A stretch of 64,000 nt of DNA, taken from the NCBI GenBank assembly GCA_963788395.1, contig CAWBGV010000031.1:73094-137093 (forward strand), in the 5' to 3' direction. This DNA is from Candidatus Doudnabacteria bacterium. GTDB taxonomy: Bacteria > Patescibacteriota > Doudnabacteria > UBA920. Shown in pieces: positions 8,649 through 58,536 of this stretch. The translations under genes were made by a program, and so were the position numbers. The notes under the pieces were generated by a model. The model saw only the letters and a program-made list of their open reading frames with translations, searched no databases and had not been told where the DNA came from. Every line of letters starts with the position of its first letter. Position 1 is the stretch's first letter.

Positions 8649-8698
8649 ACGAATATACTAATTACGAACAACCAAAGATTAGTAATTAGTATATTCGT
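8649..8698. repeat. 17-bp perfect inverted repeat (ACGAATATACTAATTAC / GTAATTAGTATATTCGT) with a 16-nt spacer, preceded by the TACGGAT-TACGGAT tandem
   Basis: Read directly from the sequence immediately after the pyk stop. Confidence 0.6.
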
Positions 8699-8736
8699 AT
8701 AGATAAGTAATTCGTAAAGTCCCAGAAGCTCTAGAA

Positions 8737-8766
8737 GCTCGAACTTTAATACTTCGGGCTTTTTTA
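8737..8766 (+). terminator. Rho-independent terminator after pyk
   Basis: GCTCGAA-(9 nt)-TTCGGGC stem (with a G-U pair) followed by TTTTTTA. Confidence 0.55.
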
Positions 8767-8789
8767 TGTCGAATTCGAAAAAAAATATA

Positions 8790-8817
8790 TGACAAATTCG
8801 CTAATGAGCGCTATACT
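8790..8817 (+). promoter_or_regulatory. Sigma70-like promoter for ppsA (TGACAA-16-TATACT)
   Basis: -35 at 8790-8795 and -10 at 8812-8817, about 50 nt upstream of the ATG at 8868. Confidence 0.45.
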
Positions 8818-8867
8818 ATAGACATAAAATAACATCAATTAGGAAATCAAAATTAAAAATCAATCAT

Positions 8868-11369
8868 ATGCCTAACGGGGGACAAAAAGAAAACGCATTT
8901 ATATTGTGGTTTGACGAGATATCAAAGGACGACATTCCGTACGTGGGCGGCAAGAACGCCAACTTGGGGGAAATGTACCAAAAGTTGACGAAAACGCCAA
9001 GCTCAATTTTTAAGGGAGAAAAAATTTCCGTCCCCTATGGTTTTGCGGTGACTGCTGCGTCGTACCGCTATTTTATTGCCGCTAATAAATTGGATGTTAA
9101 AATCAGCGATATTTTAAAAGATTTAAACACCAAAGACATTAAACAGCTGGAGGATTGCGGCCAAAAAGTACGGCAACTTATCTTAGCTGCCATCTTCCCC
9201 AAAGATTTAGAAGCCCAAATTCGCAGTGCCTATGTTAATTTGGCAACCAAGCTAAAGTTAGACGTGGCCGGGCTCGATGTGGCCGTCCGATCTTCCGCCA
9301 CTGCCGAAGACCTGCCCAATGCATCGTTTGCGGGCCAGCAGGAGTCGTACTTAAATATAAAAGGCGAGTACGCGCTCTTGGAAGCCATTAAAAAATGCTT
9401 TGCCTCGCTGTTTACTAATCGCGCTATATCGTATCGTGTTGACCAGCATTTTGACCATTTTAAAATTGCCCTCTCTGCCGCCGTTCAAAAAATGGTTCGT
9501 TCCGACCGCGGCGCCAGCGGGGTTATGTTTACGCTCGATACTGACAGCGGCTTCCGCGAAGTCGTCCTGATTAATGCGGCCTACGGTTTGGGTGAATTTG
9601 TCGTTAAGGGAGTGGTAACCCCAGATGAGTATATGGTCTTTAAGCCTACATTAAAACAAGGTTTCGCCTCTATTATTTCAAAACAGCTTGGTTCCAAAGA
9701 GAAAAAATTAATTTATGCCGGTGAGGGCATTAGCCCGACCAAAGAAGTCCCGGTGCCGGAGCATGATCGCCATCAATTCGTGTTGGATGACGCCAAAGTC
9801 CTACAGCTCTCGCGCTGGGGCGTAATTATTGAAGAGCACTATAATCGCCCAATGGATATAGAATGGGCGTATGACGGTACCACCAAGGAATTATTTATTG
9901 TCCAAGCCCGTCCGGAAACTGTCCAGGCCAGAAAAGATGGGACGATTTTGGAAGAATATGTGTTATTAGAAAAAGGTAAAGTAGTCTTAACCCACGGCGC
10001 CGCTGTTGGCGCGAAAATCGGCCAAGGAAAAGCGCATTATATTAAAGATGCTTCGCAGATTTCGGAATTTAACCAAGGCGAAGTTCTGGTTACGGAAATA
10101 ACCGATCCTGACTGGGAGCCGATTATGAAAATGGCTTCGGCTATTGTGACCAATGCCGGCGGCCGTACCAGCCACGCGGCCATAGTTTCGCGCGAACTCG
10201 GGATTCCGGCCGTCGTGGGCTGTGGCGACGCCACCAAAGTTATTTCGACCGGAATGCCCGTAACCGTCAGCTGTGCCGAAGGCGAGACCGGCAAAATCTA
10301 TCAAGGCATGCTTAAGTTTAAAGTCAATCGCCATGATTTAACTAATTTTCAGCAGCCGAAAACGGAAATTAAAATGATTGTGGCCGATCCGGAACTGGTG
10401 TTCGGGTATTCTTTTATTCCCAATCGCGGCGTGGGCTTGGCGCGGGAAGAATTTATCATTTCCAATTATATTAAAGTTCATCCGAACGCCCTGCTGCATT
10501 TTAACCAACTGAAAGATCCGGCAGTCAAAAAACAAATCGAAGACATTACGGTTGGGTACGAAAATAAACTCGATTTTTATGTCCACAAATTGGCTTACGG
10601 TATTGGAATTATAGCGGCTGCCTATTACCCGCACGAAGTAATTTTGCGCTTTTCCGATTTTAAAACCAACGAATATGCCAACCTCATCGGCGGTAAGGAT
10701 TTTGAGCCCAAAGAGGAAAATCCCATGATTGGCTGGCGCGGCGCTTCGCGATATTACGACGATAATTTTAAAGACGCGTTTGCCTTGGAGTGTCAGGCGG
10801 TTAAAAAAGTCCGCGAAGAAATGGGTTTGTGGAATTTAAAAACTATGATTCCGTTCTGTCGCACGCCGGAAGAGGGCGCCGCGGTGTTGCAAGAGATGGA
10901 GAAGAATGGACTCTCGCGGAAAAAAGCTTCAAAAAGTCAATTAGGAAAAATCAAACAAGATCCGAAAGCTAAAGCTCCAACCCTCAAGCCTGAGCTGGAA
11001 GTCTGGGTTATGGCCGAAATACCTTCCAATATATTGCAGGTGGAGGAGTTTGCTGCCTTGTTTGACGGATTTTCTATCGGCTCGAACGATTTAACCCAAC
11101 TGACATTGGGACTGGATCGCGACAGCAAATTAGTTGCGCACATCGGCAATGAACGCAATAAATCGGTGCTTATTCTGATCCATAATCTTATCCAGCGCGC
11201 TCACCAGGCCGGGCTGAAAGTCGGCATCTGCGGCCAGGGACCGTCGGATTTCCCGGACTTGGCGGAATTTTTGGTGCACGAGGGAATAGACTCGATTTCT
11301 CTTAATCCGGACACGGTGCTCAAAGCAACCCTTAATATTAAGGCGGTGGAAGAAAAAATGGGGAAGTAA
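8868..11369 (+). CDS. ppsA: Phosphoenolpyruvate synthase (pyruvate, water dikinase)
   Basis: 833 aa with an N-terminal ATP-grasp region, the mobile domain GGRTSHAAIVSRELGIPAVVGC (catalytic His), and a C-terminal PEP-utilising TIM barrel. Confidence 0.9.
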   Translation: MPNGGQKENAFILWFDEISKDDIPYVGGKNANLGEMYQKLTKTPSSIFKGEKISVPYGFAVTAASYRYFIAANKLDVKISDILKDLNTKDIKQLEDCGQKVRQLILAAIFPKDLEAQIRSAYVNLATKLKLDVAGLDVAVRSSATAEDLPNASFAGQQESYLNIKGEYALLEAIKKCFASLFTNRAISYRVDQHFDHFKIALSAAVQKMVRSDRGASGVMFTLDTDSGFREVVLINAAYGLGEFVVKGVVTPDEYMVFKPTLKQGFASIISKQLGSKEKKLIYAGEGISPTKEVPVPEHDRHQFVLDDAKVLQLSRWGVIIEEHYNRPMDIEWAYDGTTKELFIVQARPETVQARKDGTILEEYVLLEKGKVVLTHGAAVGAKIGQGKAHYIKDASQISEFNQGEVLVTEITDPDWEPIMKMASAIVTNAGGRTSHAAIVSRELGIPAVVGCGDATKVISTGMPVTVSCAEGETGKIYQGMLKFKVNRHDLTNFQQPKTEIKMIVADPELVFGYSFIPNRGVGLAREEFIISNYIKVHPNALLHFNQLKDPAVKKQIEDITVGYENKLDFYVHKLAYGIGIIAAAYYPHEVILRFSDFKTNEYANLIGGKDFEPKEENPMIGWRGASRYYDDNFKDAFALECQAVKKVREEMGLWNLKTMIPFCRTPEEGAAVLQEMEKNGLSRKKASKSQLGKIKQDPKAKAPTLKPELEVWVMAEIPSNILQVEEFAALFDGFSIGSNDLTQLTLGLDRDSKLVAHIGNERNKSVLILIHNLIQRAHQAGLKVGICGQGPSDFPDLAEFLVHEGIDSISLNPDTVLKATLNIKAVEEKMGK

Positions 11370-11375
11370 CTAAAT

Positions 11376-11409
11376 AAGACCTATGGGACCAATTGGTCCT
11401 ATAGGTCTT
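11376..11409. terminator. Bidirectional terminator between convergent ppsA and glnII
   Basis: 15-bp stem AAGACCTATGGGACC / GGTCCTATAGGTCTT (one G-U pair) with a 4-nt loop AATT. Confidence 0.65.
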
Positions 11410-11421
11410 ATTGAAATTAGG

Positions 11422-12573
11422 TTACAAGTTCATCTTTTGCGTATCGGAATTTACCGGAGGCTGCGGCAGCGGGGTGCTTTTGCCGTTTTGGATAATCAGA
11501 TATTTTTCATCATGAAATTCAAAGTTGCTCCAGCCATATTTATCCGGGTCAAAGCCTTCCCCGCAAGTGGTTTCAATTAAGGCAGTACAAATTTGGTAAG
11601 GGTCCAGGTTGGCTGCCGGACGGCGGTCTTCCAAATAGCCGCGGCCCTTGTTGGCCGTATCCATGGGAATGCGAATACTGGCGCCCCGGTCGGAAACTCC
11701 GTAGCGGAAATCATAAATGCTGCAGGTTTCGTGCTTGCCGGTGAGGCGTTTGTCGTTATCCGCGCCATACACCCGCATGTGCTGCTTGTGGAACCGGCCT
11801 AATTTTTCGCAGGTTTTTTTAATGTATTCCAGTCCGCCGGTTTCGCGCATAGGGCGAGTCGAAAAGTTGGTGTGCCCGCCCGCGCCGTTCCAATCACCGC
11901 TCATGGGCTTAGGATCGAGTTTGGCATAGGCGTTATGTTCTTCACCCAAGCGGTATAGTAACCAGCGCGCCAGCCACATTTGGTCCGATATTTCTAATGG
12001 TCCGCCGGCGCCCACTTGAAATTCCCATTGCGCCGGCATTACTTCGGCGTTAATTCCGGAAATCATAATTCCCGCGTCCAAGCAGGCTTTGGCGTGAGCT
12101 TCTACTAATGGCCGGCCATGGACTTCGTCGTAACCGACGCCGCAGTAGTAACGGCCTTGCGGTGAAGGATATCCTTTTTCCGGCCAGCCTAACGGCCAGT
12201 CTTTATCATACAAAGTGTATTCTTGTTCAAAACCAAACCAGGGTTCCTGATCTTTAAATTTTTCCGCTACCTTTGCCAAAACGTGCCGGGTGTTGGAAAT
12301 GTGAGGTGTGCCGTTGGCGTTTAAGACTTCGCACATGACCAAAATATTCGGGTCGCCGTTGATGGGGTCGTTGATATAGTAAACCGGTTTGAGCATGCAG
12401 TCGCTAAAGTGCCCTTCGGCTTGTTCGGTAGACGAACCGTCAAAGCCCCACATGGGGATGTCTTCTATTTTTCTGACCGGGCCATCGATAATTTTTGTTT
12501 TAGAGCGTAACTTGGCCGTGGGCTTTCTGCCGTCCGTCCAAATATATTCCGCCATAATTTTGTTGTTTGGCAT
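11422..12573 (-). CDS. glnII: Glutamine synthetase type II (eukaryote-like GSII)
   Basis: 383 aa. The N-terminus MAEYIWTDGRKPTAKLRSKTKII matches the GlnII AEYIWIDG...AKLRSKT signature, and length fits GSII rather than the 470-aa GSI. Confidence 0.85.
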   Translation of the reverse strand: MPNNKIMAEYIWTDGRKPTAKLRSKTKIIDGPVRKIEDIPMWGFDGSSTEQAEGHFSDCMLKPVYYINDPINGDPNILVMCEVLNANGTPHISNTRHVLAKVAEKFKDQEPWFGFEQEYTLYDKDWPLGWPEKGYPSPQGRYYCGVGYDEVHGRPLVEAHAKACLDAGIMISGINAEVMPAQWEFQVGAGGPLEISDQMWLARWLLYRLGEEHNAYAKLDPKPMSGDWNGAGGHTNFSTRPMRETGGLEYIKKTCEKLGRFHKQHMRVYGADNDKRLTGKHETCSIYDFRYGVSDRGASIRIPMDTANKGRGYLEDRRPAANLDPYQICTALIETTCGEGFDPDKYGWSNFEFHDEKYLIIQNGKSTPLPQPPVNSDTQKMNL

Positions 12574-13749: not shown

Positions 13750-14814
13750 ATGAACAAAGTTATCACCATCAACTTAAATGGCCGCGCCTATCAAGTTGAA
13801 GAAGAAGGTTACAATAAATTGCGCGACTATCTCCAGTCGGCCGGCGAAAAATTATCCAACGACCCTGGCAAAGAAGAAATTATGAGTGACTTAGAGCAGG
13901 CCATGGCCGAAAAGTGCGATCAATACTTGCAAAAGAATAAAACCGTAGTCACCAACAGCGATGTTGAATCGATTATTTCACAGTTGGGGCCGGTCCAGGG
14001 TCAAACTTCGTCTGCCGAGGCCTCGTCAGACGCCGCTCATGAAAGTCCTAAAAACACTGCGGAACCAAAGCGTCTGTACCGGATTGCCGAAGGCGCTATG
14101 TTCCGCGGCGTCTGTACCGGATTGGCAGCTTATTGGAATGTAGATGTGACCTTTATTAGAATCGGTTTTGTAATTCTCGTCTTAATAACTCACGGATTTG
14201 GGATTTTGCTGTATCTGGTCATGATGATTGTTATTCCACCCGCAACTACCTCGGCCCAAAAAGCCGCGGCCAGTGGCGCGCCATTTACCGCCCAAGAATT
14301 TATTGACCGCGCCCGCCAGGAGTACGAAAAATTTTCCAATCGTGAAGACTGGAAGAATTGGAAGCGCGAATGGAAAGCTAAGGCTCGCCAGGAAAAGTGG
14401 GAATGGCGCCAGCAGCGCCGCGCCAGCTGGAATCCGGTTTCTCCATTTTTGGGCCTGTTAGTAGCTGTTTTGTCTATCTTATGGCTGTGGGGCCTGGTTA
14501 TGATCATAAGTCGAGGTATGATTTTTGGTTGGTTGCTGCCGGCTACTATTCCGATTTGGGTGATAATTCTGATATGGCTCTGCGTCTACAGTTTTGTGAT
14601 GTGGCCGCTGAAAGCCGCCCGCTGGTCGATGGCCTATCATGATCCCGATTACCACCACCATTACCACAACGGTTTTGCCGAAACCGTGGTCTGGTTGGCC
14701 TTTATAGCTATAATTATTTGGGCAGCCTGGCAATACATTCCGTCTTCCCACCATGCCTTGGAACAGGCGCGCGTATGGGGGCAGCACCTCACACAAAAAT
14801 TACGAATCCATTAA
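13750..14814 (+). CDS. PspC-domain membrane protein (LiaF/PspC-like stress sensor)
   Basis: PspC domain LYRIAEGAMFRGVCTGLAAYWNVDVTFIRIGFVILVL, several transmembrane helices, a charged W/K/E-rich linker and a His-rich tail. Confidence 0.75.
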   Translation: MNKVITINLNGRAYQVEEEGYNKLRDYLQSAGEKLSNDPGKEEIMSDLEQAMAEKCDQYLQKNKTVVTNSDVESIISQLGPVQGQTSSAEASSDAAHESPKNTAEPKRLYRIAEGAMFRGVCTGLAAYWNVDVTFIRIGFVILVLITHGFGILLYLVMMIVIPPATTSAQKAAASGAPFTAQEFIDRARQEYEKFSNREDWKNWKREWKAKARQEKWEWRQQRRASWNPVSPFLGLLVAVLSILWLWGLVMIISRGMIFGWLLPATIPIWVIILIWLCVYSFVMWPLKAARWSMAYHDPDYHHHYHNGFAETVVWLAFIAIIIWAAWQYIPSSHHALEQARVWGQHLTQKLRIH

Positions 14815-14816
14815 GT

Positions 14817-15581
14817 ATGACTAACGAAGTTTTGTTAAGCGTAAAAGATTTAAAAAAGAAGTATGACAACGGCTACGAAGCGGTAAAGGGCGTTAGTTTT
14901 GAGGTGCATAAAAGCGAAGTCTTCGGAATTTTAGGCCCCAATGGCGCCGGTAAAACCACAACTTTAGAAATGATAGAAGGTCTAAGATCAATTACCAGCG
15001 GGGCGGTTATTTTAGATGGGCTCGACGTCCAAAAAAGTCCTTACGCAGTTAAAGAACGCATTGGGATTCAATTACAAGCGTCGGCTTTTTTTCCCAACCT
15101 CACGCTGGTTGAACTTCTGCAAATGTTCAGTGATCTGTATGGCCAATCAAATGATCCCGTTGAACTCTTGCGTGAAGTCGGGCTGGAACAAAAAGCCGGC
15201 AGCTACGCTAAAGATTTGTCCGGCGGCCAGCGCCAGCGGTTTTCAATCGCGACGACTCTGGTCAATAAGCCGATCATGGTATTTTTAGATGAGCCGACGA
15301 CCGGACTTGATCCGCAAGCGCGCCGGAATTTATGGGAGCTCGTCCAGCAAATTCAAAAAAAAGGCACTACTGTTATTTTAACCACGCACTATATGGATGA
15401 AGCTCAAATACTCTGCGACCGGGTGGCAATTATGGACGAAGGGAAAATTGTAGCGCTGGATACGCCAAATGTACTCATTGAACAGCTGTTATCGCGCGGT
15501 TTCAAAGCTCACACCGTGGTGCCTCCCGCTACATTGGAAGATGTTTTTATAGATTTGACCGGAAAAGAACTCAGAGATTAA
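14817..15581 (+). CDS. ABC transporter ATP-binding protein
   Basis: Walker A GPNGAGKTT, signature LSGGQRQR, Walker B VFLDEPTTGLD. The ATG at 14817 lies 2 nt after the PspC stop, so the ORF-track N-terminus from 14718 is an upstream read-through. Confidence 0.9.
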   Translation: MTNEVLLSVKDLKKKYDNGYEAVKGVSFEVHKSEVFGILGPNGAGKTTTLEMIEGLRSITSGAVILDGLDVQKSPYAVKERIGIQLQASAFFPNLTLVELLQMFSDLYGQSNDPVELLREVGLEQKAGSYAKDLSGGQRQRFSIATTLVNKPIMVFLDEPTTGLDPQARRNLWELVQQIQKKGTTVILTTHYMDEAQILCDRVAIMDEGKIVALDTPNVLIEQLLSRGFKAHTVVPPATLEDVFIDLTGKELRD

Positions 15582-17009: not shown

Positions 17010-18478
17010 TTATAGAGCTGCCAAATCTATGGTTTGATCAATCCGGACCTGGGCAACAAAATCCGGAACGTGGGAGACCATAAGCAGGGCGCTTTGGTAA
17101 TCACTGAGGGCTTGGGCAATAATAGGTAAATGTCGGAAGTTAATATGATTAGTGGGTTCGTCCAGAATAAGCAGTCCGGGTTGTAGCAAAACCAGCCGAC
17201 AAAACGACAGGAGTCCTTTTTGGCCTTCCGACAGAGCCGCAATGGGTTGATCCAGGAGTTTGCCATCCAGTAAAAAACCCGCGGCGGTGGAACGCAAAAT
17301 GTGCTCATCGAATTTTTGCATAACTTCCTTGAGGGCATCAAAAGCTTTTTGGTCAAAGTTAAAATTGGAGAAATCTTGTTTGTAGTAGCCTATGAGGATG
17401 TCTTTGGCCACTGTAAAACCTTGTCCGGAACCGGCAGTGATTTTTTCCAGCAGGGTGCTTTTGCCGATGCCGTTTGGGCCGGTAATAATTACGTGGGTAT
17501 TTTTTCGTATCGTCATGTCTAGGTCTTTACTGACTACTCCATGTTCACGGATAGCGGAAAGAGAAGAGAACGTTAAAATTTTTCCATCAAAAAATGGGTC
17601 AAATTCTTGACAGGGGATGGTAAATTCGCGGATGGTCTTGTCTTCCCGCCGAACTTCTACCACGCTTTCTTCCGCTGCTTCCGCCGCTTCCCGCATGCGC
17701 TTGGCTACGGCGCGCAGTTTGCCGCCTTTGTGGGCGAAGACTTCGGCTTGGGAACGCTTCTCTTTAATTTCCATTTGCATGCGGGCGTTTTGCAAATTTT
17801 CCCGTTCAATCCGGTTTTTAATTTCTTCGACTACGTCGTAATAGTTCCCGGAGTATTGTTCAATTTTATGGGTAAAGACATCTAAATATAAGACACCATC
17901 GGAAAAGGCGTTGAGAAAATCGGCATCGTGGGAAATAACCACGACAGTTTTTTCGTACATCATCAAAAAGCCGGTCAAATGTTCTATGCCTTGTTGGTCA
18001 AGATTGTTTGTAGGCTCGTCCAAAAGTAAAATATCAGGATTTTGGATAAGCGCGTGCGCCAATAATAATCGCGCCTGCTGTCCGCCGGAAAAATGTTTAA
18101 CGGTTTTTTCTAAAGGCAGATCTACATTTACGACTTCAAACACGTCGCGGATTAACTTATCCAGATTATATTTTTTTTCAGCAAAAGCCGTGGCAAAATA
18201 ATCCCGGACCGATAATTCGGCAAGGTCTTTTGGCATAACTTGTCTGGCGATAGCAATTGAAGCGTCTTTGGGAGTAATCAATATTTCCCCTTAAGTTAGG
18301 TTTGATCTCGCCGGTAATCATTTTTAAAGAGTGTGGATTTTCCCGCGCCGTTCTGTCCCATAAGCGTGACTCTGCTGCCGCTGCGAACGCTAAAACTCGC
18401 CTCTTCCAAAACAGGTTTGTTGTGCCCGTACTCAAACGTGACGTTTGAGAATCTTAAAATAACGTTATCGTTAGCCAT
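17010..18478 (-). CDS. ABC-F family ATPase (EttA/Uup/YheS-like, tandem ABC domains), two frameshifts near the N-terminus
   Basis: Three ORF pieces (18296..18478, 18178..18435 and 17010..18281) read GQNGAGKSTLFK | MITGEIKPNLR | GEILITPKDASIAIARQVMPKDLAELSVRDYF... The breaks are at a TTTTT run (18321-18325) and a CCCC run (18287-18290). There is a second Walker A ITGPNGIGKST and signature FSGGQQARL. Confidence 0.85.
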
Positions 18479-18854
18479 ATAGTAAAAAAGAAACCCCGCT
18501 GATGGGGTGAAAAACTATATTGATTGTAGCAGCTTAACCGCCTCCGGTCAATCAAAATAAAACCCGCCACAAAGAGGGGTTTTTGGTCACAGTAGGCCAC
18601 AGCTTGACTTAAATATCGTAGCACATTGGTTTTTTATGTCAATATCTGGTGGACAGCATAGCTTCCGAGTTAAATCATATCTGGGACTACGTTTGGCGTT
18701 GGTATCCTTGGGTCAAAGAGTTAGAAACGGCCAATGTTGCTGGGTAATTTGGCGTGTTTAGGTCACACATGCCAGTATTTAAACGCTAAAATTTAGGCTT
18801 TTAATGCTTCTGTGCCGACTTTTTCTATAAGTCTTATAAATTTTTGCGCAGCTT

Positions 18855-20022
18855 CTAGTCCTGTTCAGCATCTTCTTTCTTGAATTGCTCCCATTGGTGA
18901 ACCCCCGCGTTTCTTTTCTTTCTCACAAGCAGTTTCCAATTTTTATGCTCTTCCGCGCCATCAAATGTTACGATCGGTAATTTCTTTTTTTCTCGCAAAA
19001 TATTAATATTTTCCTGCAACCTCAAAATTCTGCTGCCAGTTGTTAAAAATCCTTTCTTTTTGCGAGCAAGCTTTTGAGCTTTGGTAGAGTCTTCATCTAG
19101 CATTTCTTCAATTTCGCTTGCCTTTATACCTTGCAATTCCAAAGCGCCAACTTGATAACAAGTTAGAACGGCCATTTCCACAGCAGTGTCAAAATCAACA
19201 ATGCAAATTCTATAATCTTTATCCATTGCTATTCTTTCTAATCCGGCTAACAAAATCTGATTAAATATTCAATGCTATAAGCGCCTGCACCACCAGCAAC
19301 TAGAGACATAAGCCCATCAGCAGGAATTATCAGCTTTTACATTCATTAAAAGCGGAGAACTGATTCGTCCTTGGACAAGAGGTATGGCATCTTGTTCCAT
19401 ATTCGGAACCATGGGGAAAGGTTGAAATTTTCTTTGTGATATTAACTTTGGTGACAAAAGTTCAATTGTTGATTTGGTTTTATCATCATCACTAAATACA
19501 CTGATATAAACACAAGTATAAAAGGTTAAATCACTGTCTTCCGACAAAAATTTGTTATAGTAATCATGAGATGTGTGTTTGTATGCCAACAAAAATTTGT
19601 TAAAAAAATTTATTGTAGTAGTTCTTAAAAATTAGCTATTGGTTGGGTTAGACCAGGCCGAATCTATGTCATTGATGGAAAAAATAATAGCAATTTCTGA
19701 AAAAAACCATGGGTAAAAAACTTTACCAGCTTCTCCAGCAATGATATGGAATATTGGCTGATCACATCCTCCCCGGATCCGACTAACTCCGCATTTTTTG
19801 AATTTTTTGGAGTAATAGGTTCAAGTGCAATGCGTTGTTGAGCACTGTCAGTTCTCTCGCTTCTTAATAAATTGCTTTTATCAAAAATCTGATTTTTCCT
19901 TCTTTCGATAAGATCTGCACCAAGCCTACTTCCTCGGCACCAACGGCAACAGGATAAAATCCATCGGGAACACCGATGTGAAATGGATAGTCGAAAACTA
20001 TTTTGACAAAGCCTGGTCTCAT
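18855..20022 (-). pseudogene. Degenerate SLOG/LOG-like (Rossmann-fold, PGGxGTxxE-type) gene in several frame-shifted pieces
   Basis: Pieces read MRPGFVKIVFDYPFHIGVPDGFYPVAVGAEEVGLVQILSKEGKIRF... | ...LLRSERTD...HGFFQKLLLFFP | ...DAIPLVQGRISSPLLMNVK | LIIPADGLMSLVAGGAGAYSIEYLIRF | LLAGLERIAMDKDYRICIVDFDTAVEMAVLTCYQVGALE... The ADGLMSLVAGGAGAYSIEYL..LAG...MDKDYRICIVD segment parallels the LOG-family DaFIaLPGGfGTlEEl...qLg.h.kP..llN motif. Breaks are at A4/T4 runs (19251-19254, 19336-19339). Confidence 0.3.
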
Positions 20023-20174: not shown

Positions 20175-20547
20175 ATGTCAGCGTTGGAAACATCCTTCAA
20201 AGTAGAGTTTTTTACAACTGCTGCCGGCAATAATCCAGTTTGGGGAGTCTACAGAAGATTTACCTCCCGAAGAATTTAAGTATTTTGATCGCGCTATTAC
20301 GCGCTGTCAGACGTTACCTTTGTCTAACCTGTTTAAATGTGGTTACTTGGAAAAAATGTCAGGCTTTGATTTGTATGAACTTCGTATAAGTGTTAAAAAC
20401 AAAATTTACCGAATACTGTGTGTAATAAAAGACGCAGTTATTTGGTTTTTAAATGTGTTTCAAAAGAAAAGTCAAAAAATTAAACAAAAAGAAATAAATA
20501 CGGCCCTCGAGCGTTTTAAGCAATTAAAACTATTGGGACAATACTAA
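20175..20547 (+). CDS. HigB-like (Gp49/DUF891 RelE-ParE superfamily) toxin, 1-nt frameshift at a GGGG run
   Basis: ATG 20175 gives MSALETSFKVEFFTTAAGNNPVW, then a shift at GGGG (20242-20245) into ESTEDLPPEEFKYFDRAITRCQTLPLSNLFKCGYLEKMSGFDLYELRISVKNKIYRILCVIKDAVIWFLNVFQKKSQKIKQKEINTALERFKQL, the Gp49-like ...YRI.y..dg..iilLh.F.KK.QKtP..EI..A..R motif. Confidence 0.6.
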
Positions 20548-20548
20548 T

Positions 20549-20815
20549 ATGAACTACAATGAACTGAAAAATAAAATATTGAGCAAGCCTGCTTTTAAAG
20601 ATTCTTTAAAAGCTGATTTAGATTTTGAAATAAGCCAAATGATTATTGATGCACGTCTAATGAGAGGTCTTACCCAAAAACAATTAGCCGGTATTGTAGG
20701 AACAAAGCAACCTAGTATCGCAAGAATTGAAAGTGGCTCTTTATTGCCATCCCTGAGCTTTTTAGAAAAAATCGCGAAAGCCTTAGAAACTAATTTAATT
20801 CCCCCCAAAGTTTGA
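20549..20815 (+). CDS. HigA-like XRE-family HTH antitoxin
   Basis: 88 aa: LTQKQLAGIVGTKQPSIARIESG. It starts 1 nt after the toxin stop, the toxin-first order typical of higBA. Confidence 0.7.
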   Translation: MNYNELKNKILSKPAFKDSLKADLDFEISQMIIDARLMRGLTQKQLAGIVGTKQPSIARIESGSLLPSLSFLEKIAKALETNLIPPKV

Positions 20816-20985
20816 ATTAACTGAAAATTTAAAAGTAAAAACAACTTCAATTACTCCTCAAGCTATTCAGGCATTCCCAACCCCTGTGCAGATTAATTAT
20901 TACCTTTTGGTGATACCAGAAATTCGTTCTGTAAGGCAAGTTGAGAGAAAAGTGTTGTTTTTTAATCCTAATTAAACTATATTTT

Positions 20986-21363
20986 ATGAAAAAAATTGAT
21001 AACTTTGGAATAAAACATATTTGGACTATTCTTTGCTCAAACAGTAGCATTGATCAAAACACTAACAATGTTTCTTTGTTTAATGTTATTGAGCAAGTAG
21101 AATTACAAGCATTCGATAAGAAAAAAATCAATGAAAAACAAGAGAAAGGAATACCTTTAAATTGTGAACTTATATCCTTATGGAATAGAAAAGATAATGC
21201 CAAAAAAGGTTATGAAGAAAAGGTGGAATTTGTAGATCCAGCCGGGGCAATTTTAAACACTATCGAAACCCCATTAAAAATACCTGATAATATCCAAAGC
21301 TTTAGAATGACCTTTCGAAATTATGGGGTTAAAAGTCACTACTGCTGGAGAATATTGTTTTAA
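20986..21363 (+). CDS. Hypothetical protein (AT-rich orphan)
   Basis: 126 aa from MKKIDNFGIKHIWTILCSNSS.... It has no recognisable motif, and its codon usage matches the AT-rich island. Confidence 0.3.
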   Translation: MKKIDNFGIKHIWTILCSNSSIDQNTNNVSLFNVIEQVELQAFDKKKINEKQEKGIPLNCELISLWNRKDNAKKGYEEKVEFVDPAGAILNTIETPLKIPDNIQSFRMTFRNYGVKSHYCWRILF

Positions 21364-23100: not shown

Positions 23101-24690
23101 ATGCCGAAGAAAGTTCAAACCATAATTGAATATAAGCGTGCGTTAATTTATTGCCGGGTTTCCAGTGAGCGGCAGGTTAACGAAGGCCATGGTCTTGATA
23201 GCCAAGAGCAGCGGTGTATTCGCCGTGCTTCAGATATGGGTTTGGAAGTGGCAAAAGTGTTTCGGGACGAGGGAGTATCCGGTGGTTTGTTTGACCGGCC
23301 GGCAATGCAGCTGCTTATAAAGTATCTGGATGCACGTCTACACGAAAATTTTATTATTATCTTTGACGACTTAAGCCGTTTTGCAAGGGATGTGCAAGTT
23401 CACATACAACTTAAAAGCGAACTCATTTCCAGAGGCGCAAAACTGGAGTGTTTAAATTTAAAATTGGAAGATACGGCAGAGAGTGAGCTGGTAGAAATTA
23501 TTTCCGCAGCTACGGCGCAGTATCAACGCAAGACCAATAAAAGGCAAGTTATTCAAAAAATGAAAGCCCGGCTGGAAATGGGCTATTGGACATTTTGTCC
23601 GCCACCAGGCTTAAAGTTCTGCAAAGACGCGGCCAAGGGGCAAATTTTGCGCCCCCATGCGCCACAATCTGTAATCTTTAAGGCTGCAATAGAGAAATAC
23701 CGCGACTTTGAGTTAAATACGCTTGAGGAGATTCAGCAGTTTATAATTGCGCAATATCGGCTTAACGGGCTTAATAAATCTATTTCTATAAGTGGCGTTA
23801 AAAGGCTGCTTACCAATGTTTTATATGCCGGCTGTGTGGAATACGAGCCGTGGGGTATTCCGCTTGTAAAAAATGTCCATGAAGGCTTTATTTCCTACGA
23901 AACTTTTCTTGCAGTGCAGGATCGGCAAAATAATGCGAGTAAGCCAAGAATCCGTAAAGACCAGAACATGGATTTTCCTTTACGTAATTTATGTTATTTG
24001 CGAAAGTTGTAAGCATCCTTTTACCGCGGCGTGGTTTAAGGGTAGAAAAGAAATTTATGGATATTATTTATGTAAGCAGCAAGGTTGCTCCCTTAAAAAT
24101 AAAACAATTAATGCGGATATTGTTGAAGCTGACTTTGTTAAATTGCTAAAACGAGTGTCACCAAGCCCGGAAGTTCTAAAATTGGCTGAAAAAGTTTTGG
24201 TAGATTTATGGGAAAGCCAAAGGAAAAACGAAGGACAGGTCAAAGCGGCATTTTAGCGCAGCTGAGTAAACTAGAAACTCAAAATAAAACTTTGGTGGAA
24301 AGAATTGCAAAAGCTACCGCTGACGGCTTGGTTGCTGAATACGAAAAGACTATTGCGCAAAACGTGGCAGAAATTAAAAACCTGCAAAAAGAACTCGATA
24401 AAACAAAATACTCCCAGGACGGGTTTCAAACCGCAGCGGGAGCAGTATTCGAATATCTTTCAAAACCGTTAGAACAGTGGCAAACCCGCGACTACGCAGG
24501 CAAACGGCTGTTACTCGGTATGTATTTTGAGCAGAAAGTTGCTTATAACCGTGAATTTGGTTTTCAAACCGCTCAAATTCCTTTTGTCCTTGCGACAATC
24601 CAGCAAGAACACGTGTCTAAAAATCATCTGGTGGACCGGACGGGAATTGCACCGCAAACCATGATGTCAAGCTGTGGTCCGTCACTGTGA
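23101..24690 (+). CDS. Large serine recombinase (resolvase/invertase catalytic domain + recombinase domain + zinc ribbon + coiled coil), two frameshifts
   Basis: ORF 23101..24012 has ALIYCRVSSERQ...GHGLDSQ (catalytic Ser), ORF 23873..24256 has CESCKHPF...YGYYLCKQQGC (zinc ribbon), and ORF 24208..24690 has the coiled-coil tail. Together they make about 530 aa. Breaks are at T runs (about 23975-23990, and TTTT at 24251-24254). Confidence 0.85.
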
Positions 24691-36173: not shown

Positions 36174-36315
36174 AGACCTTTTGTTTCTTAATGGTTATTT
36201 ATTTAATTATACCACTCAATATCTTATAATAGCCAATTTTAAAGAAATTTTTTATTTTTCTGTTTAAGTTGAGCGCATTTCCGGCAAATATTTTCTTTTG
36301 CTATACTAAGTGAGT

Positions 36316-37775
36316 ATGAAAACCGCGCTTTTGTCTGTGTATAACAAAGAAGGAATCGTAGAGTTTGGACGGTCTTTAAAGGACTTGGGGTGGAATATTA
36401 TTGCCAGCGGCGGCACGGCAAAAGTGCTGGTCGAGGCTGGTCTGGAAGTGACGGACACCGCCGCCTTAGCCGGCCAAGCTATACTGGGCCATCGGGTGGT
36501 GACGCTTTCGCGGGAAATTCACGCGGCTTTATTGGCGACCGATTCTCCTGAAGATCAAAAAGAACTAGCCGAATTAGATATTCCAAGAATAGATTTAGTT
36601 TGTGTAGATCTCTATCCGCTGGCGGAAGAAATTTCCCGTCCCGGCTCGACCGCCGCTTCGGTGATTGAAAAAACGGATATTGGCGGTCCGACTATGCTGC
36701 GCAGCGCGGCCAAAGGACGGCGGATAGTCATTTGCGATCCGGCCGACCGGACGGCAGTTATCGAGTGGTTAAAGAACGGATCGCCGGAAGCAGAAAAATT
36801 TATTTCCGCTTTGGTGGCTAAAGCAGAATATTATATTGCCGATTATTGTTTGCTATCCGCTCGGTATCATAGTGCTGGTCTGTATGACGGATTGCTGGGC
36901 GAGCAGGTTCAAGTCTGTGGGTATGGAGAAAATGCCTGGCAGCAACCCGCGGGTTTGTTTAAAAATCGAAGCGTTGACGAACTGGCTTTGAATGATTTCC
37001 AAGTAGCAGTTGGGGCAGCCCCCAGTTACAATAATTGGTGTGATGTTGACCGGCTGTTGCAGACTATAACTCATATAGCAGCTGCTTTTGATGTTCATTA
37101 CGGCGCAGTTCCTTGGATTGCGGTGGGGGTAAACACGGCAATGCTTGCGGCGCTGCTGTCTCGAAAACACCTCAGGAAGCCGTAACAAAAATGCTGGAAG
37201 GAGACTTACGGGCAATTTTTGGGGGACTGCTGATTGTTAATTTTGAGCTCACCGACCAATTGGCCGAAATTTTATTGACTAATAAAATGCCTACCGGCCA
37301 GCGCCGGCTGTTGGATGGTATTATAGCGCCGGCAATTACCGAAAGCGCCGTAACTATGCTGAAACGAAAGGGCGACAAATGCCGCATTTTTATAAATCCG
37401 GCTTTGGCGCGCCTTAATCGTTCATCATTAGACTCTGCCATGCGCTTTCGCTACGTGCGTGGCGGATTTTTGCGTCAGCCAAACTACACTTTTATTTTTG
37501 ATTTTTATGACGGGCAAATTCAGAACAATAAAACTGTGGATGAAAATCAAGAACAAGACTTGTTGTTGGCTTGGGCCATAGGGTCGACTTCGAACAGTAA
37601 TACCGTGACCTTGGTTAAAGATGGGATGCTAATTGGTAACGGCGTCGGCCAGCAAGACCGGGTCGGCGGCTGCGAGCTGGCCATTAAGCGCGCTGCTTCC
37701 AGCGGACACAACACGCATAAAGCCGCGGCCTATAGCGACAGCTTTTTTCCGTTCGTCGACGGTCAAAAGTTCTAA
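36316..37775 (+). CDS. purH: Bifunctional AICAR transformylase / IMP cyclohydrolase, 1-nt frameshift at a GGGGG run
   Basis: The MGS-like N-terminus is MKTALLSVYNKEGIVEFGRSLKDLGWNIIASGGTAKVL. After GGGGG at 37125-37129 the frame changes into GKHGNACGAAV...QDRVGGCELAIKRA...AYSDSFFPFVDG, the AICARFT domain. Confidence 0.9.
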
Positions 37776-53826: not shown

Positions 53827-54519
53827 ATGGCCAGAATTTCCAGAAAAAAAATTAAATTACTATTTTCGATATCGATGGCACTATTTTCCGCTCCAGCTTA
53901 GTTATAGAGCTGATTAATGGCATGGTTGAGATGGGCGTTTTTCCGCAATTGGCAAAAAAAGAAATGGAAAAAGAATACCTGGCGTGGCTGGATCGCAAGG
54001 GTGATTATGAGCATTACATTAAAAAAGTTATTCAAATCCATTTGCGCTATATCGCCGGCAAAACCAGCGCGCAAGTTGATGCCGTGGCTAAACTGGTCGT
54101 TCAAAATTTAAAAAACCGTGTCTACCGGTATACCCGCGGACTCATCCGCGATTATGAAAAGCAGGGCCATCACCTTATGGCCATTTCCGGTTCACCCACC
54201 TATTATAGTGTCCCGTTTCGCCAAACTTTGGCATTTCGACACCTACTTTGGCAGCGTTTACGAGGTCAAAGACGGGATTTATACCGGGGACGTTTTAAAC
54301 CTAGATACCGTTAATAACAAGCACAAAGTCCTCCATGGCTACCTTACCGCCCATCATTTAAAAATTGATTTTGCCAAAAGCATCGCCGTGGGTGATACCG
54401 ACAGTGATGTCTCTATGTTGGAACTCGTGGGGCATCCTATTGCCTTTAATCCCAACCTGGCTTTAGCAAAACGGCCAAAAAAAACCACTGGCCTCATAGT
54501 CGTAGACGCAAAGACGTAA
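53827..54519 (+). CDS. HAD-superfamily hydrolase, subfamily IB (phosphoserine-phosphatase-like), two frameshifts
   Basis: MARISRKKIKLLF | FDIDGTIF (motif I, after the TTTT run 53864-53867) ...GHHLMAISGSP | IIVSRFAKLWHFDTYFGSVYEV (after CCC 54195-54197) ...GDTDSD (motif IV). Confidence 0.7.
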
Positions 54520-55288: not shown

Positions 55289-55693
55289 GCGCGAACTTAA
55301 ATTTTTTCTAAAGTCCTGGTGGATAACCCGGTTGACGGTCGCGGGCATGTACGTTATTATGTACATATAGTTTTTAAGAAACCGTCATGCCGCGATTAAT
55401 AAAATTTCAAATTGAAGTCTATTATGCATGGCATGCCCAATAAAATTAATTTGGGAACCGTGAATATTTACGCCGAAAACGCGGCTCAGGCTTTGGAATT
55501 GGCCAAAGAACAAATGGAGAGCGGCGCGGTTAGTTCAAGGCCGGAACTTTGTAAGACGGTTCCAACAAAGTTGGCCTAAAAATTTAAAAGCCCCCTGGGT
55601 TACAACATTGACGCAAGTGGTAATTTGAGGTACAGTACGAATCAGAGTAAAAACACCTGCTGCTTTAAATGAACTTTGTCCCCAAGGAGCTTT

Positions 55694-56059
55694 ATGAATT
55701 CTAAAACAACGCTGCCAATTTCCGAGGCCCGTAAAAAAATTTTTGAGCTGGCTGAAGAAGTTCAAAAACCGGGCCAGTACTATGTTCTTACGGAGAAGGG
55801 GCGCGCTAAGGCAGTACTGCTTTCGGCAGATGAGTTTGCTTCGTGGCAGGAAACGCTCGAAGTCATGAAAGATTTTCCGGAGTTAAAATTTGACATTCAG
55901 CAGGCCGAGGCGGATTTTCAGACGGGTAAATTTACTACTTTAGCCGGATTATTGGCTCGCCAAGGCTTTGTCCTGGCTGAAAAAGAAAAAAAGACTTATG
56001 CGGCATCGCGTCATCATTCCCAAAAAGGTAGAACTGGAACTCGAAAACGCAAAGCCTGA
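55694..56059 (+). CDS. Phd/YefM-family antitoxin (3' end uncertain)
   Basis: SD AAGGAG before ATG 55694: MNSKTTLPISEARKKIFELAEEVQKPGQYYVLTEKGRAKAVLLSADEFASWQETLEVM. The ORF continues 60 nt into the toxin gene through an A7 run (55986-55992), so the true stop is probably earlier. Confidence 0.6.
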   Translation: MNSKTTLPISEARKKIFELAEEVQKPGQYYVLTEKGRAKAVLLSADEFASWQETLEVMKDFPELKFDIQQAEADFQTGKFTTLAGLLARQGFVLAEKEKKTYAASRHHSQKGRTGTRKRKA

Positions 56060-57082: not shown

Positions 57083-57695
57083 CTAGTGTCCGGGGTGGCG
57101 AGTGGTAATCGTCACGATGTAGCGCTTAATGCCTGTTTTATCATTCAGTTCCGTAACTACGTGGCCGGAGGCTTCATGGCTCCTGGGCTCCTGGAACTGT
57201 AAGTAAGCTCCTTCGTAGACTTGTCTGCCAAATACGGTAATTTGCTCCGAGCCGATTGGCCGGGTCAAAAAACCAGTTTTGGGGGTAGTAATGGGGAGCC
57301 GAACTGGTCATAAACCTAATGGCCGGTTGGGGTTCCGAAACCATTTCACCGTTTGCGTCACTGATGCTGCGCGGTTGTACCCAGGTTTTGGTGTATTTGC
57401 CGGGTACATTCCAGAAAATTCCGGCAAACGAATCTGGCTTGGTGGCGGTAATGTTGATGTCATACAGCAGGCTGATGGTGCAATTGGGACAATCTATGCG
57501 AGGCATCTTTTCATTTTTCATGGCATCAAGGCCATTTTGCAACATAGCAGTCAGGGCGGCGGGGGTGGGAACATAACAATCAACTTGGTTTTGTTCCGGG
57601 GGCCAGATTTGGGCGGGCGGGGTGGTTTGTGGTTGTGCATATGTTCCAATCATGGGCAGGAACACTGCGAAAAACATCGTGACCTTTGGGGTCAT
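57083..57695 (-). CDS. Secreted hypothetical protein, frameshifted near the C-terminus
   Basis: Signal peptide MTPKVTMFFAVFLPMIGTYAQP and Cys-containing motifs DCYVP...DCPNCT. The C-terminus continues in ORF 57083..57268 (...ITTRHPGH). Confidence 0.4.
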
Positions 57696-57819
57696 CTGGT
57701 GTTGCCTCCTTGTGAAAAATATATTATACCATATTGCCGGACGGTTTTCTCTGGCGCGGATTTTTCTGCTATAGTTATGGTAGTCAATCAATTGCTCCAG
57801 AAACCTAGAAACAAAAACC

Positions 57820-58536
57820 ATGGCCAGAGTTTATGGGCGAAAAAGCGCTTACTTAGAACAACGCGATATCCTTTATTATGTTTTATCGGCAGCCTTTCCA
57901 GTGCTGGTCTTGGCGGTGCTCTATGGAATTCTCAAAATTTTTGGGAAAGACAACGATATTGTTCTCTTAATCGCCATAGCGGTTTTAATTATATTAGTTA
58001 TTGTATTTGAACCTGTAGAAAAACTCTGGGGCCGCAGAGCCGGAAAATATTCTAGAGGATTGCACGGAGAAATGGCGGTGGCTAAAATGTTGAAAGATCT
58101 GCCGGACACTTTTGCCGTATTTGAAGATGTAACCATTGGGAAGAATCGCGGCAATATAGATTTTATAGTTGTCGGGCCGCCCGGTATTTTTTTATTGGAA
58201 GTGAAAAGCCACGGCGGGATCATTGGTTACAACGGCTTTGGGCTGACTCTGAACGGGAAAGCTATTCGCGATAAAGATTTTTTCCGACAAATTCACGGAG
58301 AAGTTTGGGCCTTAAAAAATTACTTACTCATGCAGCTTGGCCACAGTCCTTACATTCACCCGGTCTTGGTTTTTGCCAATGACTACGCCATAACTCACTT
58401 TGGTTACCGTCCGCTTCGGAATGTGTTTATTATCCAGAAGGAAGAATTACCAGCATTGTTTGTGCACTTTCCGGCAATGCAGTACATTACGCCTCAGCAG
58501 AAAATTGAACAGGTTTTGGCTAAGGTTGTGAAGTAA
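57820..58536 (+). CDS. NERD-domain (nuclease-related) membrane-anchored protein
   Basis: 238 aa, intact: two transmembrane helices, then GEMAVAKMLKDLPDTFAVFEDVTI...GNIDFIVVGPPGIFLLEVKSHGG. Confidence 0.8.
   Translation: MARVYGRKSAYLEQRDILYYVLSAAFPVLVLAVLYGILKIFGKDNDIVLLIAIAVLIILVIVFEPVEKLWGRRAGKYSRGLHGEMAVAKMLKDLPDTFAVFEDVTIGKNRGNIDFIVVGPPGIFLLEVKSHGGIIGYNGFGLTLNGKAIRDKDFFRQIHGEVWALKNYLLMQLGHSPYIHPVLVFANDYAITHFGYRPLRNVFIIQKEELPALFVHFPAMQYITPQQKIEQVLAKVVK

Follow-up and report, generated by a model that had tools for sequence, protein, structure and literature searches.

A broken gene of a rare, probably HEPN-type family on a decayed island in a Candidatus Doudnabacteria contig

The window analysed here is a stretch of 64,000 nucleotides (nt) from Candidatus Doudnabacteria bacterium (assembly GCA_963788395.1, contig CAWBGV010000031.1, positions 73,094 to 137,093 of the forward strand), and coordinates refer to this window. 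On its minus strand, open stretches in all three frames fill the region from 18.8 to 20.0 kb. Our analyses indicate that these fragments form a single gene, 18793-20022, at the left end of a low-G+C island. We read it as a dead member of a rare, unnamed family of approximately 400 to 420 amino acids (aa), in which an N-terminal region is joined to a probable HEPN ribonuclease (RNase), left on a decayed island; we put the probability of this reading at roughly 0.7. An earlier sequence-only reading had placed a degenerate gene at 18855-20022 and assigned it to the Rossmann-like SLOG/LOG family. The features of the gene are listed below in the direction in which it is read, with frameshifts numbered FS1 to FS5.

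18793-20022, minus strand: whole pseudogene, approximately 409 codons after repair; rare two-domain family with a beta-rich N-terminal region and a C-terminal HEPN-like domain
19336-20022, minus strand: N-terminal and middle region, approximately aa 1-228, from the homologue alignment and the AlphaFold model of homologue P0001
19889-19899, minus strand: FS1, in an A5 run (GGAAAAATCAG); ...LSKEG / QIFDK...
19758-19771, minus strand: FS2, GAGGATGTGATCAG, no long homopolymer; ...GSGED / DQPIFHIIAG...
19631-19633, minus strand: in-frame TAA nonsense codon (NS*FL), a base substitution with no indel
19331-19340, minus strand: FS3, in an A4 run (GTAAAAGCTG); ...LLMNVK / LIIPADG...
19266-19335, minus strand: variable linker with 'GGAGAYS', between FS3 and FS4, in a frame that differs from its flanks
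19260-19273, minus strand: FS4, ATTGAATATTTAAT; ...AYSIE / (I)FNQILLAGLER
18793-19265, minus strand: C-terminal HEPN-like helical domain (IFNQILLAGLER ... FDTAVE ... W..RKKRNAGVH ... AAQKFIRLIEKV)
18897-18914, minus strand: codons R-N-A-G-V-H, the putative catalytic motif Rx4H, intact in the pseudogene
18853-18863, minus strand: FS5, CAGGACTAGAA, at CAGG/ACTA; ...EDAEQ / (A)LEAAQKFIRLIEKVGTEALKA*

The joined translation matched 18 protein clusters of 391 to 438 aa with 99% query coverage (E values from 1.6e-92 to 3.7e-31), none of which carries a Pfam domain, and in tblastn comparisons the intact homologues tiled the pieces in order. Since all 18 clusters align over 99% of the query, the fragments are one gene that is intact elsewhere, as the sequence-only reading had supposed, and not parts of different genes. 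The tblastn alignments together with codon-by-codon reading gave a total of six lesions, five frameshifts and one TAA codon, and a corrected protein of 409 aa that is 44 to 47% identical to its best homologues. It keeps 52 of the 56 positions that are invariant in the family, the exceptions being R to K, E to V, L to M and F to L. The earlier repair was right about a degenerate gene but counted four lesions and approximately 380 aa. FS5 creates a false stop at 18855-18857; the true end of the gene is the TAA at 18793-18795, after ...LEAAQKFIRLIEKVGTEALKA*, so that the earlier boundary at 18855 had missed approximately 20 C-terminal residues. Our repair of FS5 agrees with a relic gene product from another contig (P0029, see below), which reads 'AEQALNAAQKF'. 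The N-terminal string MRPGFVKIVFDYPFHIGVPDGFYPVAVGAEEVGLVQ and most of the C-terminal string quoted earlier stand in the corrected protein, but two stretches had been read out of frame: GSGEDVISQYSISLLEKLVKFFTHGFF, where tblastn and codon reading give ...GSGED-DQPIFHIIAGEAGKVFYPWFFSEIAIIF..., and AYSIEYLIRFLLAGLER, where they give ...AYSIE(I)FNQILLAGLER.... A G4 run 3 to 6 bases upstream is an alternative, less likely position for FS2. At the position of the TAA codon (19631-19633) homologues carry K, D, E, Q or R.

A direct repeat spaced by 45 nt (…CAACAAAAATTTGTTA…) was seen at 19529-19609 on the minus strand. It corresponds to a repeated N-K-F-L peptide motif (FFNKFLLAY / YYNKFLSED) that is present in all family members and may point to a duplication inside the N-terminal region.

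The C-terminal domain, approximately 160 aa in length, resembles an HEPN RNase. In the alignment of 18 family members the segment R-K-x-R-N-x3-H is invariant, and the full set of family-invariant residues here comprises E-R in the first helix, D-Y..I..F-D-T-A-V-E in the second and W....R-K-x-R-N-x3-H. The FDTAV(E/D) segment falls in the second long helix, and its D is invariant in the family according to the alignment and the domain model. A HMMER search of 1.84 billion representative proteins returned 93 matches, 20 of them at E<=1e-10, a set that includes several short fragments. Among the remaining matches, most share only profile positions of approximately 230 to 405, and W..(Y/R)..RNxxxH(x)G is present in every one of these. 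When 72 distant relatives, defined as proteins sharing only the HEPN-like domain with the family, were aligned, the only fully invariant columns were the R and H of Rx4H, with E and W near-invariant.

A model of the domain alone (mc03c497ad676) reached a predicted local distance difference test score (pLDDT) of 85.2 and a predicted template modelling score of 0.81. It places helix 1 at residues 25-39, helix 2 with its acidic residues at 43-68, inserted helices at 73-117, helix 3, ending in RNxxxH, at 129-148 and helix 4 at 154-179. With the HEPN description of Anantharaman et al. (PMC3710099) as the reference for helix order, the predicted order appears to agree.

Profile searches gave sub-threshold matches. 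For the window protein, DUF4145 scored E 0.008 in Pfam; among the 18 members, HEPN_Swt1 was matched by three, DUF4145 by two and HEPN_Apea by one (1.5e-4), and HEPN was also matched (8e-4). In the distant relatives HEPN_RiboL-PSP appeared in 17 of 72 (best 6.9e-6), together with Apea, Swt1, DUF4145, HEPN and MAE_28990, again below threshold. The HEPN part of the PADLOC Csx1/Csm6 models was matched by 5 of the 18 members (best 1.1e-4, sub-threshold), and one member weakly matched TIGR02672 Csm6 in NCBIfam. Almost all recurring profile matches belong to the HEPN clan, and competing families recur in no more than two sequences. Taken together, this sub-threshold evidence makes it very likely that the C-terminal domain belongs to the HEPN superfamily. 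A second, word-indexed search for Pfam-annotated HEPN relatives with the 72-sequence alignment found nine proteins, all unannotated. Weak matches to phrog_1305 ('DNA binding protein') were also seen in 10 of the 18 members (alignment A2, best E 3.5e-4).

The N-terminal region, approximately 230 aa, occurs only in company of the family's HEPN domain among the HMMER relatives, and it found no significant match in Pfam, PDB or BFVD. The AlphaFold model of homologue P0001 (mean pLDDT 79.8) has eight beta-strands (residues 8-119), which are followed by a long helix (129-154), a small region of mixed structure and an all-helical part (256-410). Invariant N-terminal motifs are FDYPF, FDK, YPW, FN..L..Y(R), Y...Y.SE and R.F..P. 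A CARF-type sensor, which the weak Csx1/Csm6 matches had suggested, was rejected, since in P0001 the PADLOC match stops short of the N-terminus, covering the HEPN part alone (aa 243-404), and the N-terminal fold is predicted to be all-beta. Beta-rich N-terminal domains are fused to other HEPN families, namely ApeA-NTD1 and MAE_18760-NTD1 (PMC3710099). The N-terminal region of the window family may act as a sensor.

The family is rare. Approximately 16 to 20 of the 1.84 billion representative proteins span most of its length, 3 of 185,579 GTDB species-representative genomes encode it, and no relatives were found in IMG/VR viral contigs, INPHARED phages or PLSDB plasmids. It has no entry in Pfam, NCBIfam or PADLOC and no solved relative. 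Genomic contexts were drawn from nineteen homologue loci. In three of them (L009, from a Saccharibacteria metagenome-assembled genome (MAG), L015 and L016) the gene lies between the Mod methylase and the Res helicase-nuclease of a type III restriction-modification (R-M) system. In L003/L013 and in L008, from a Gastranaerophilales MAG, the gene comes after HsdS within a type I operon, which additionally encodes an AAA_15/AAA_21 ATPase; in L017-L019 it lies upstream of an Mrr_cat nuclease. Large serine recombinases adjoin the gene in L001 (a Bdellovibrionales MAG), L007, L017 and L018, and a Shedu-type SduA_C gene is found near the family member in L007. No neighbour is common to all loci; because no partner gene is shared across them, the gene appears to be a self-contained single-gene module. 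No CRISPR-Cas genes were found within approximately 4.5 kb in the 19 loci. An R-M-operon setting is the usual one for R-M-linked HEPN abortive-infection RNases such as PrrC, RloC and ApeA. The type I operon of L003/L013 (4202-6884) is itself a multi-gene defence cluster, with the AAA_15/AAA_21 ATPase and two unannotated genes between hsdM and hsdS.

In the window, the pseudogene forms the left end of a low-G+C island of approximately 6 kb (about 18.6-24.7 kb), where G+C drops from about 0.46 to 0.34-0.39 between approximately 18.6 and 22 kb. The other genes of the island are as follows.

20175-20547, plus strand: Gp49/HigB-like toxin gene, frameshifted, in pieces of 34 aa and 75 aa (Pfam Gp49, E 4.7e-13, joined reading)
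20549-20815, plus strand: XRE-type helix-turn-helix (HTH) protein, 88 aa, intact, cognate antitoxin-like (Pfam HTH_3, E 9.2e-13)
20941-21363: unassigned open reading frame (ORF), 140 aa
21812-22666, plus strand: trypsin-like serine peptidase gene (GFSGSPVW) with two frameshifts (Trypsin_2, E 1e-5, just short of the Pfam cut-off)
23101-24690, plus strand: large serine recombinase at the right end of the island, in three ORFs via two frameshifts, with Resolvase, Recombinase and Zn_ribbon_recom in order

The island shows features of a large-serine-recombinase element, with all three recombinase domains at one end of a compositionally distinct segment. Searches for an attachment site or flanking repeats of the island gave nothing convincing. 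Rfam and tRNA scans of the window were empty, hence there is no tRNA integration site. Every sizeable gene of the island is broken, the small HTH gene being the exception, and since the recombinase, the toxin and the protease are broken too, the element reads as an immobilised fossil. The toxin/HTH pair is divergent from the HEPN pseudogene, its toxin dead and its antitoxin kept. The peptidase gene is clearly richer in G+C than the left-hand genes, which raises the possibility of a mosaic island.

A deletion relic of a related island was found on an independent metagenome contig (L012, 755-1365; JGI 3300020842, contig Ga0207147_1018). There, the last 84 codons of the HEPN gene (P0029, 92 aa) show 69% aa identity to the window copy and abut a recombinase 3' end, to which the window sequence at 24478-24648 is 76% identical at the nucleotide level. 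The 92-aa ORF of the relic recurs in a Logan contig (P0109), and an HEPN_AbiV gene lies 1.2 kb from the relic in L012. Outside the island, at 8678-12369, the window is 99.97% identical to a Logan contig of run ERR11630400.

The remainder of the window served as background for the lesion count. Outside the island about four lesions were confirmed in 58 kb (purH, an ABC-F gene twice and one HAD gene). The purH gene (MGS plus AICARFT/IMPCHase; 36310-37775, plus strand) is split into two ORFs by a frameshift near 37120-37130 in a G5 run (GTGGGGGT), and a housekeeping gene broken in this way points to indel errors still present in the assembly. The ABC-F type ATPase gene that flanks the island (17010-18478, minus strand) has two frameshifts within approximately 40 nt; an A5 run (TTTAAAAATG) holds one of them, and the other lies close to a G4 run (TTAAGGGGAA). 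At 53922-54519 on the plus strand, two overlapping ORFs, the second with only the C-terminal part of a HAD hydrolase domain, probably represent one frameshifted gene, judging from Pfam coverage. The background lesions look like homopolymer sequencing errors. A further overlapping ORF pair at 57279-58536 may hide a frameshift and is a fifth candidate for the background count; an ORF overlap at 13750-15581 was not counted, as it consists of two separate genes, PspC and an ABC ATPase. Elsewhere in the window, a PhdYeFM-type antitoxin gene (55676-56059) and a NERD nuclease-related gene (57820-58536), both on the plus strand, lie near a stretch of G+C 0.39-0.40 at approximately 58-61 kb that may be another small mobile or defence island.

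Several results count against the reading that we prefer. None of the HEPN profiles reached its curated cut-off, and PADLOC has no model for the family. Foldseek searches of both models against PDB and BFVD found no significant match, the best non-significant rows being a CARF-truncated Csx1 (E 1.1) and a phage MAE_28990-like HEPN protein (E 0.16). Full-length, C-terminal and distant-relative sequence profiles gave only chance matches in PDB. With homopolymer indels in housekeeping genes, and with FS1 and FS3 in A5 and A4 runs, these two frameshifts could be sequencing errors. The SLOG/LOG assignment, as a divergent Rossmann domain that binds or processes nucleotides, has next to no chance of being right. 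It owes everything to a visual likeness of LVAGGAGAYS...ICIVDFD to the hallmark PGGxGTxxE...llnvdg, and fell on the profile check: LOG/TIGR00730, SLOG, YpsA and DprA profiles did not match the repaired protein at E<=10 in Pfam, NCBIfam or PADLOC, nor any of the 18 intact homologues at E<=1 (Pfam and PADLOC) or <=0.1 (NCBIfam). 'GGAGAYS' is not conserved, the family having AGGAGIFS, HGSGGMYE, IGKGGLIKG or KCLSGP-E with a single near-invariant G, and in both models the string falls in a loop that scores below 50 in pLDDT and is predicted to be disordered. The stretch that had been aligned to 'DafIalPGG...' covers the linker and, in the C-terminal helical domain, the first two helices; 'ICIVDFDTAVE' is part of a long conserved helix. 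Structure prediction gave an all-beta part followed by a helical one, with a beta-alpha-beta alternation nowhere in the model, and we rejected a SLOG/LOG identity on these grounds. The accompanying idea of a decaying conflict-system effector is retained in its defence setting and its decay, on other grounds, namely an HEPN-type domain and R-M and recombinase contexts. A different possibility accepts the HEPN-like helical module and denies that it is an RNase toxin, making it an accessory subunit that binds nucleotides or proteins and modulates the neighbouring R-M enzymes. We regard this as unlikely. Some HEPN-clan domains are non-catalytic, for instance the nucleotidyltransferase C-terminal domains (PMC3710099), Mod and Res tightly enclose the gene at some loci while HsdS precedes it at others, and no conserved antitoxin-like partner was found. 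Yet Rx4H and the acidic residue of helix 2, typical of active HEPN RNases, are invariant in the family and invariant or nearly so in the distant relatives, the gene is also found without nearby R-M genes (L001, L007), and studied HEPN proteins from within R-M operons, among them PrrC/RloC and ApeA, are RNases. An HEPN RNase is most likely for the C-terminal domain.

The same weighing applies to the lesions, which might all have arisen during sequencing or assembly, as homopolymer indels in AT-rich DNA, in a gene that is intact in the organism and encodes a functional effector. This would fit the homopolymer character of the frameshifts in purH (G5) and the ABC-F gene (A5, G4), the A5 and A4 settings of FS1 and FS3 and the survival of 52 of the 56 invariant residues, Rx4H included; the public protein collection, moreover, holds only a fragmented version. 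We consider it distinctly unlikely all the same. At least three lesions (the TAA substitution, FS4, FS5) lie outside homopolymer runs of at least four bases, and FS2 most likely does too. The pseudogene has 6 lesions in 1.23 kb and the island about 11 in 5.9 kb, well above the window average, as the sequence-only reading had noticed. The gene contains 38 homopolymer runs of at least four bases versus 1435 outside the island, and when the background is scaled by such runs, 0.1-0.4 lesions would be expected in the gene against the 6 observed; the Poisson probability stays below 4e-6 even with a background count of 15, three to four times that found. An invariant E has been replaced by V, the large neighbouring genes of the island are all broken, and the related island in L012 has independently been reduced to a relic. 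We therefore hold with high confidence that the decay of the pseudogene is real, in agreement with the earlier suggestion. Since conservation is still high, it is probably recent.

For an intact member, by analogy with single-protein HEPN defence effectors that have been characterised, we propose that dimerisation through the HEPN domain would form a composite R...H active site and that the N-terminal region would keep the protein inactive until an infection-linked cue. The trigger could be phage infection or failure of the adjacent restriction system. Once activated, the protein would cut cellular RNA (tRNA, rRNA or mRNA) and abort the infection, as a back-up to restriction. The gene travels as cargo of R-M operons and large-serine-recombinase elements. 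The copy in the window has been inactivated by its five frameshifts and one nonsense mutation and is capable of none of this.

For the window itself this is an ordinary relic of a defence or toxin gene on a mobile island that is itself a fossil, and the main value of the analysis is a corrected annotation, HEPN-type instead of SLOG/LOG, with exact lesion positions. The wider interest is modest and lies in an unnamed HEPN variant that recurs within R-M operons of poorly studied bacteria, including lineages of the candidate phyla radiation. It is conceivable, at somewhat less than even odds, that the intact relatives represent an undescribed single-gene defence module in mostly uncultivated hosts (Saccharibacteria, Gastranaerophilales, Bdellovibrionales), an HEPN RNase with a new beta-rich N-terminal sensor fold that acts as an abortive-infection back-up and responds to a trigger new for HEPN effectors. 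If an intact member did prove to be an infection-triggered RNase, its unfamiliar N-terminal region would extend the range of sensors among single-protein HEPN effectors, whose activation is only recently being worked out, for example for ApeA.

The family was compared with several known systems. With LOG/SLOG proteins (such as the ThsA SLOG and TIGR00730) it shares a short glycine-containing string in one sub-clade and conflict-related loci, but has neither a profile match nor a Rossmann fold, and the motif is not conserved. Csm6/Csx1, the CRISPR accessory RNases built from CARF and HEPN domains, have the same order of a sensor followed by a C-terminal HEPN effector and gave the weak matches in 5 of 18 members; the window family differs in having an all-beta N-terminus in place of the Rossmann-like CARF domain and no CRISPR-Cas linkage in the 19 loci. 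The families most often matched, RiboL-PSP-HEPN, DUF4145 and Swt1-like HEPN, share Rx4H, the acidic residue of helix 2 and, as far as predicted, the helical topology, whereas scores remain under their cut-offs and the N-terminal region is unrelated to their described partners.

ApeA is a single-protein HEPN abortive-infection anticodon nuclease. One family member matches HEPN_Apea weakly (E 1.5e-4, below cut-off), and the ApeA N-terminal-domain profile found no match in the family. ApeA has approximately 580 aa, its solved structures are mainly alpha-helical, and its N-terminal and Mid domains resemble fragments of catenin and PafA; this description sets it apart from the window family, with approximately 410 aa and an all-beta N-terminus. 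Membership in ApeA was therefore rejected, given a single sub-cut-off match among 18 members and the differences in size and N-terminal fold. Like intact relatives of the window gene, ApeA is often embedded in R-M operons; it is activated on infection and cuts tRNA (PMC3710099; bioRxiv 10.64898/2026.01.26.701840). PrrC and RloC carry an N-terminal ABC-ATPase domain, whereas the window family has no P-loop or ATPase signature. They are HEPN RNases that lie inside R-M operons as a second line of defence (PMC3710099), and relatives of the window gene likewise lie inside type I and type III operons.

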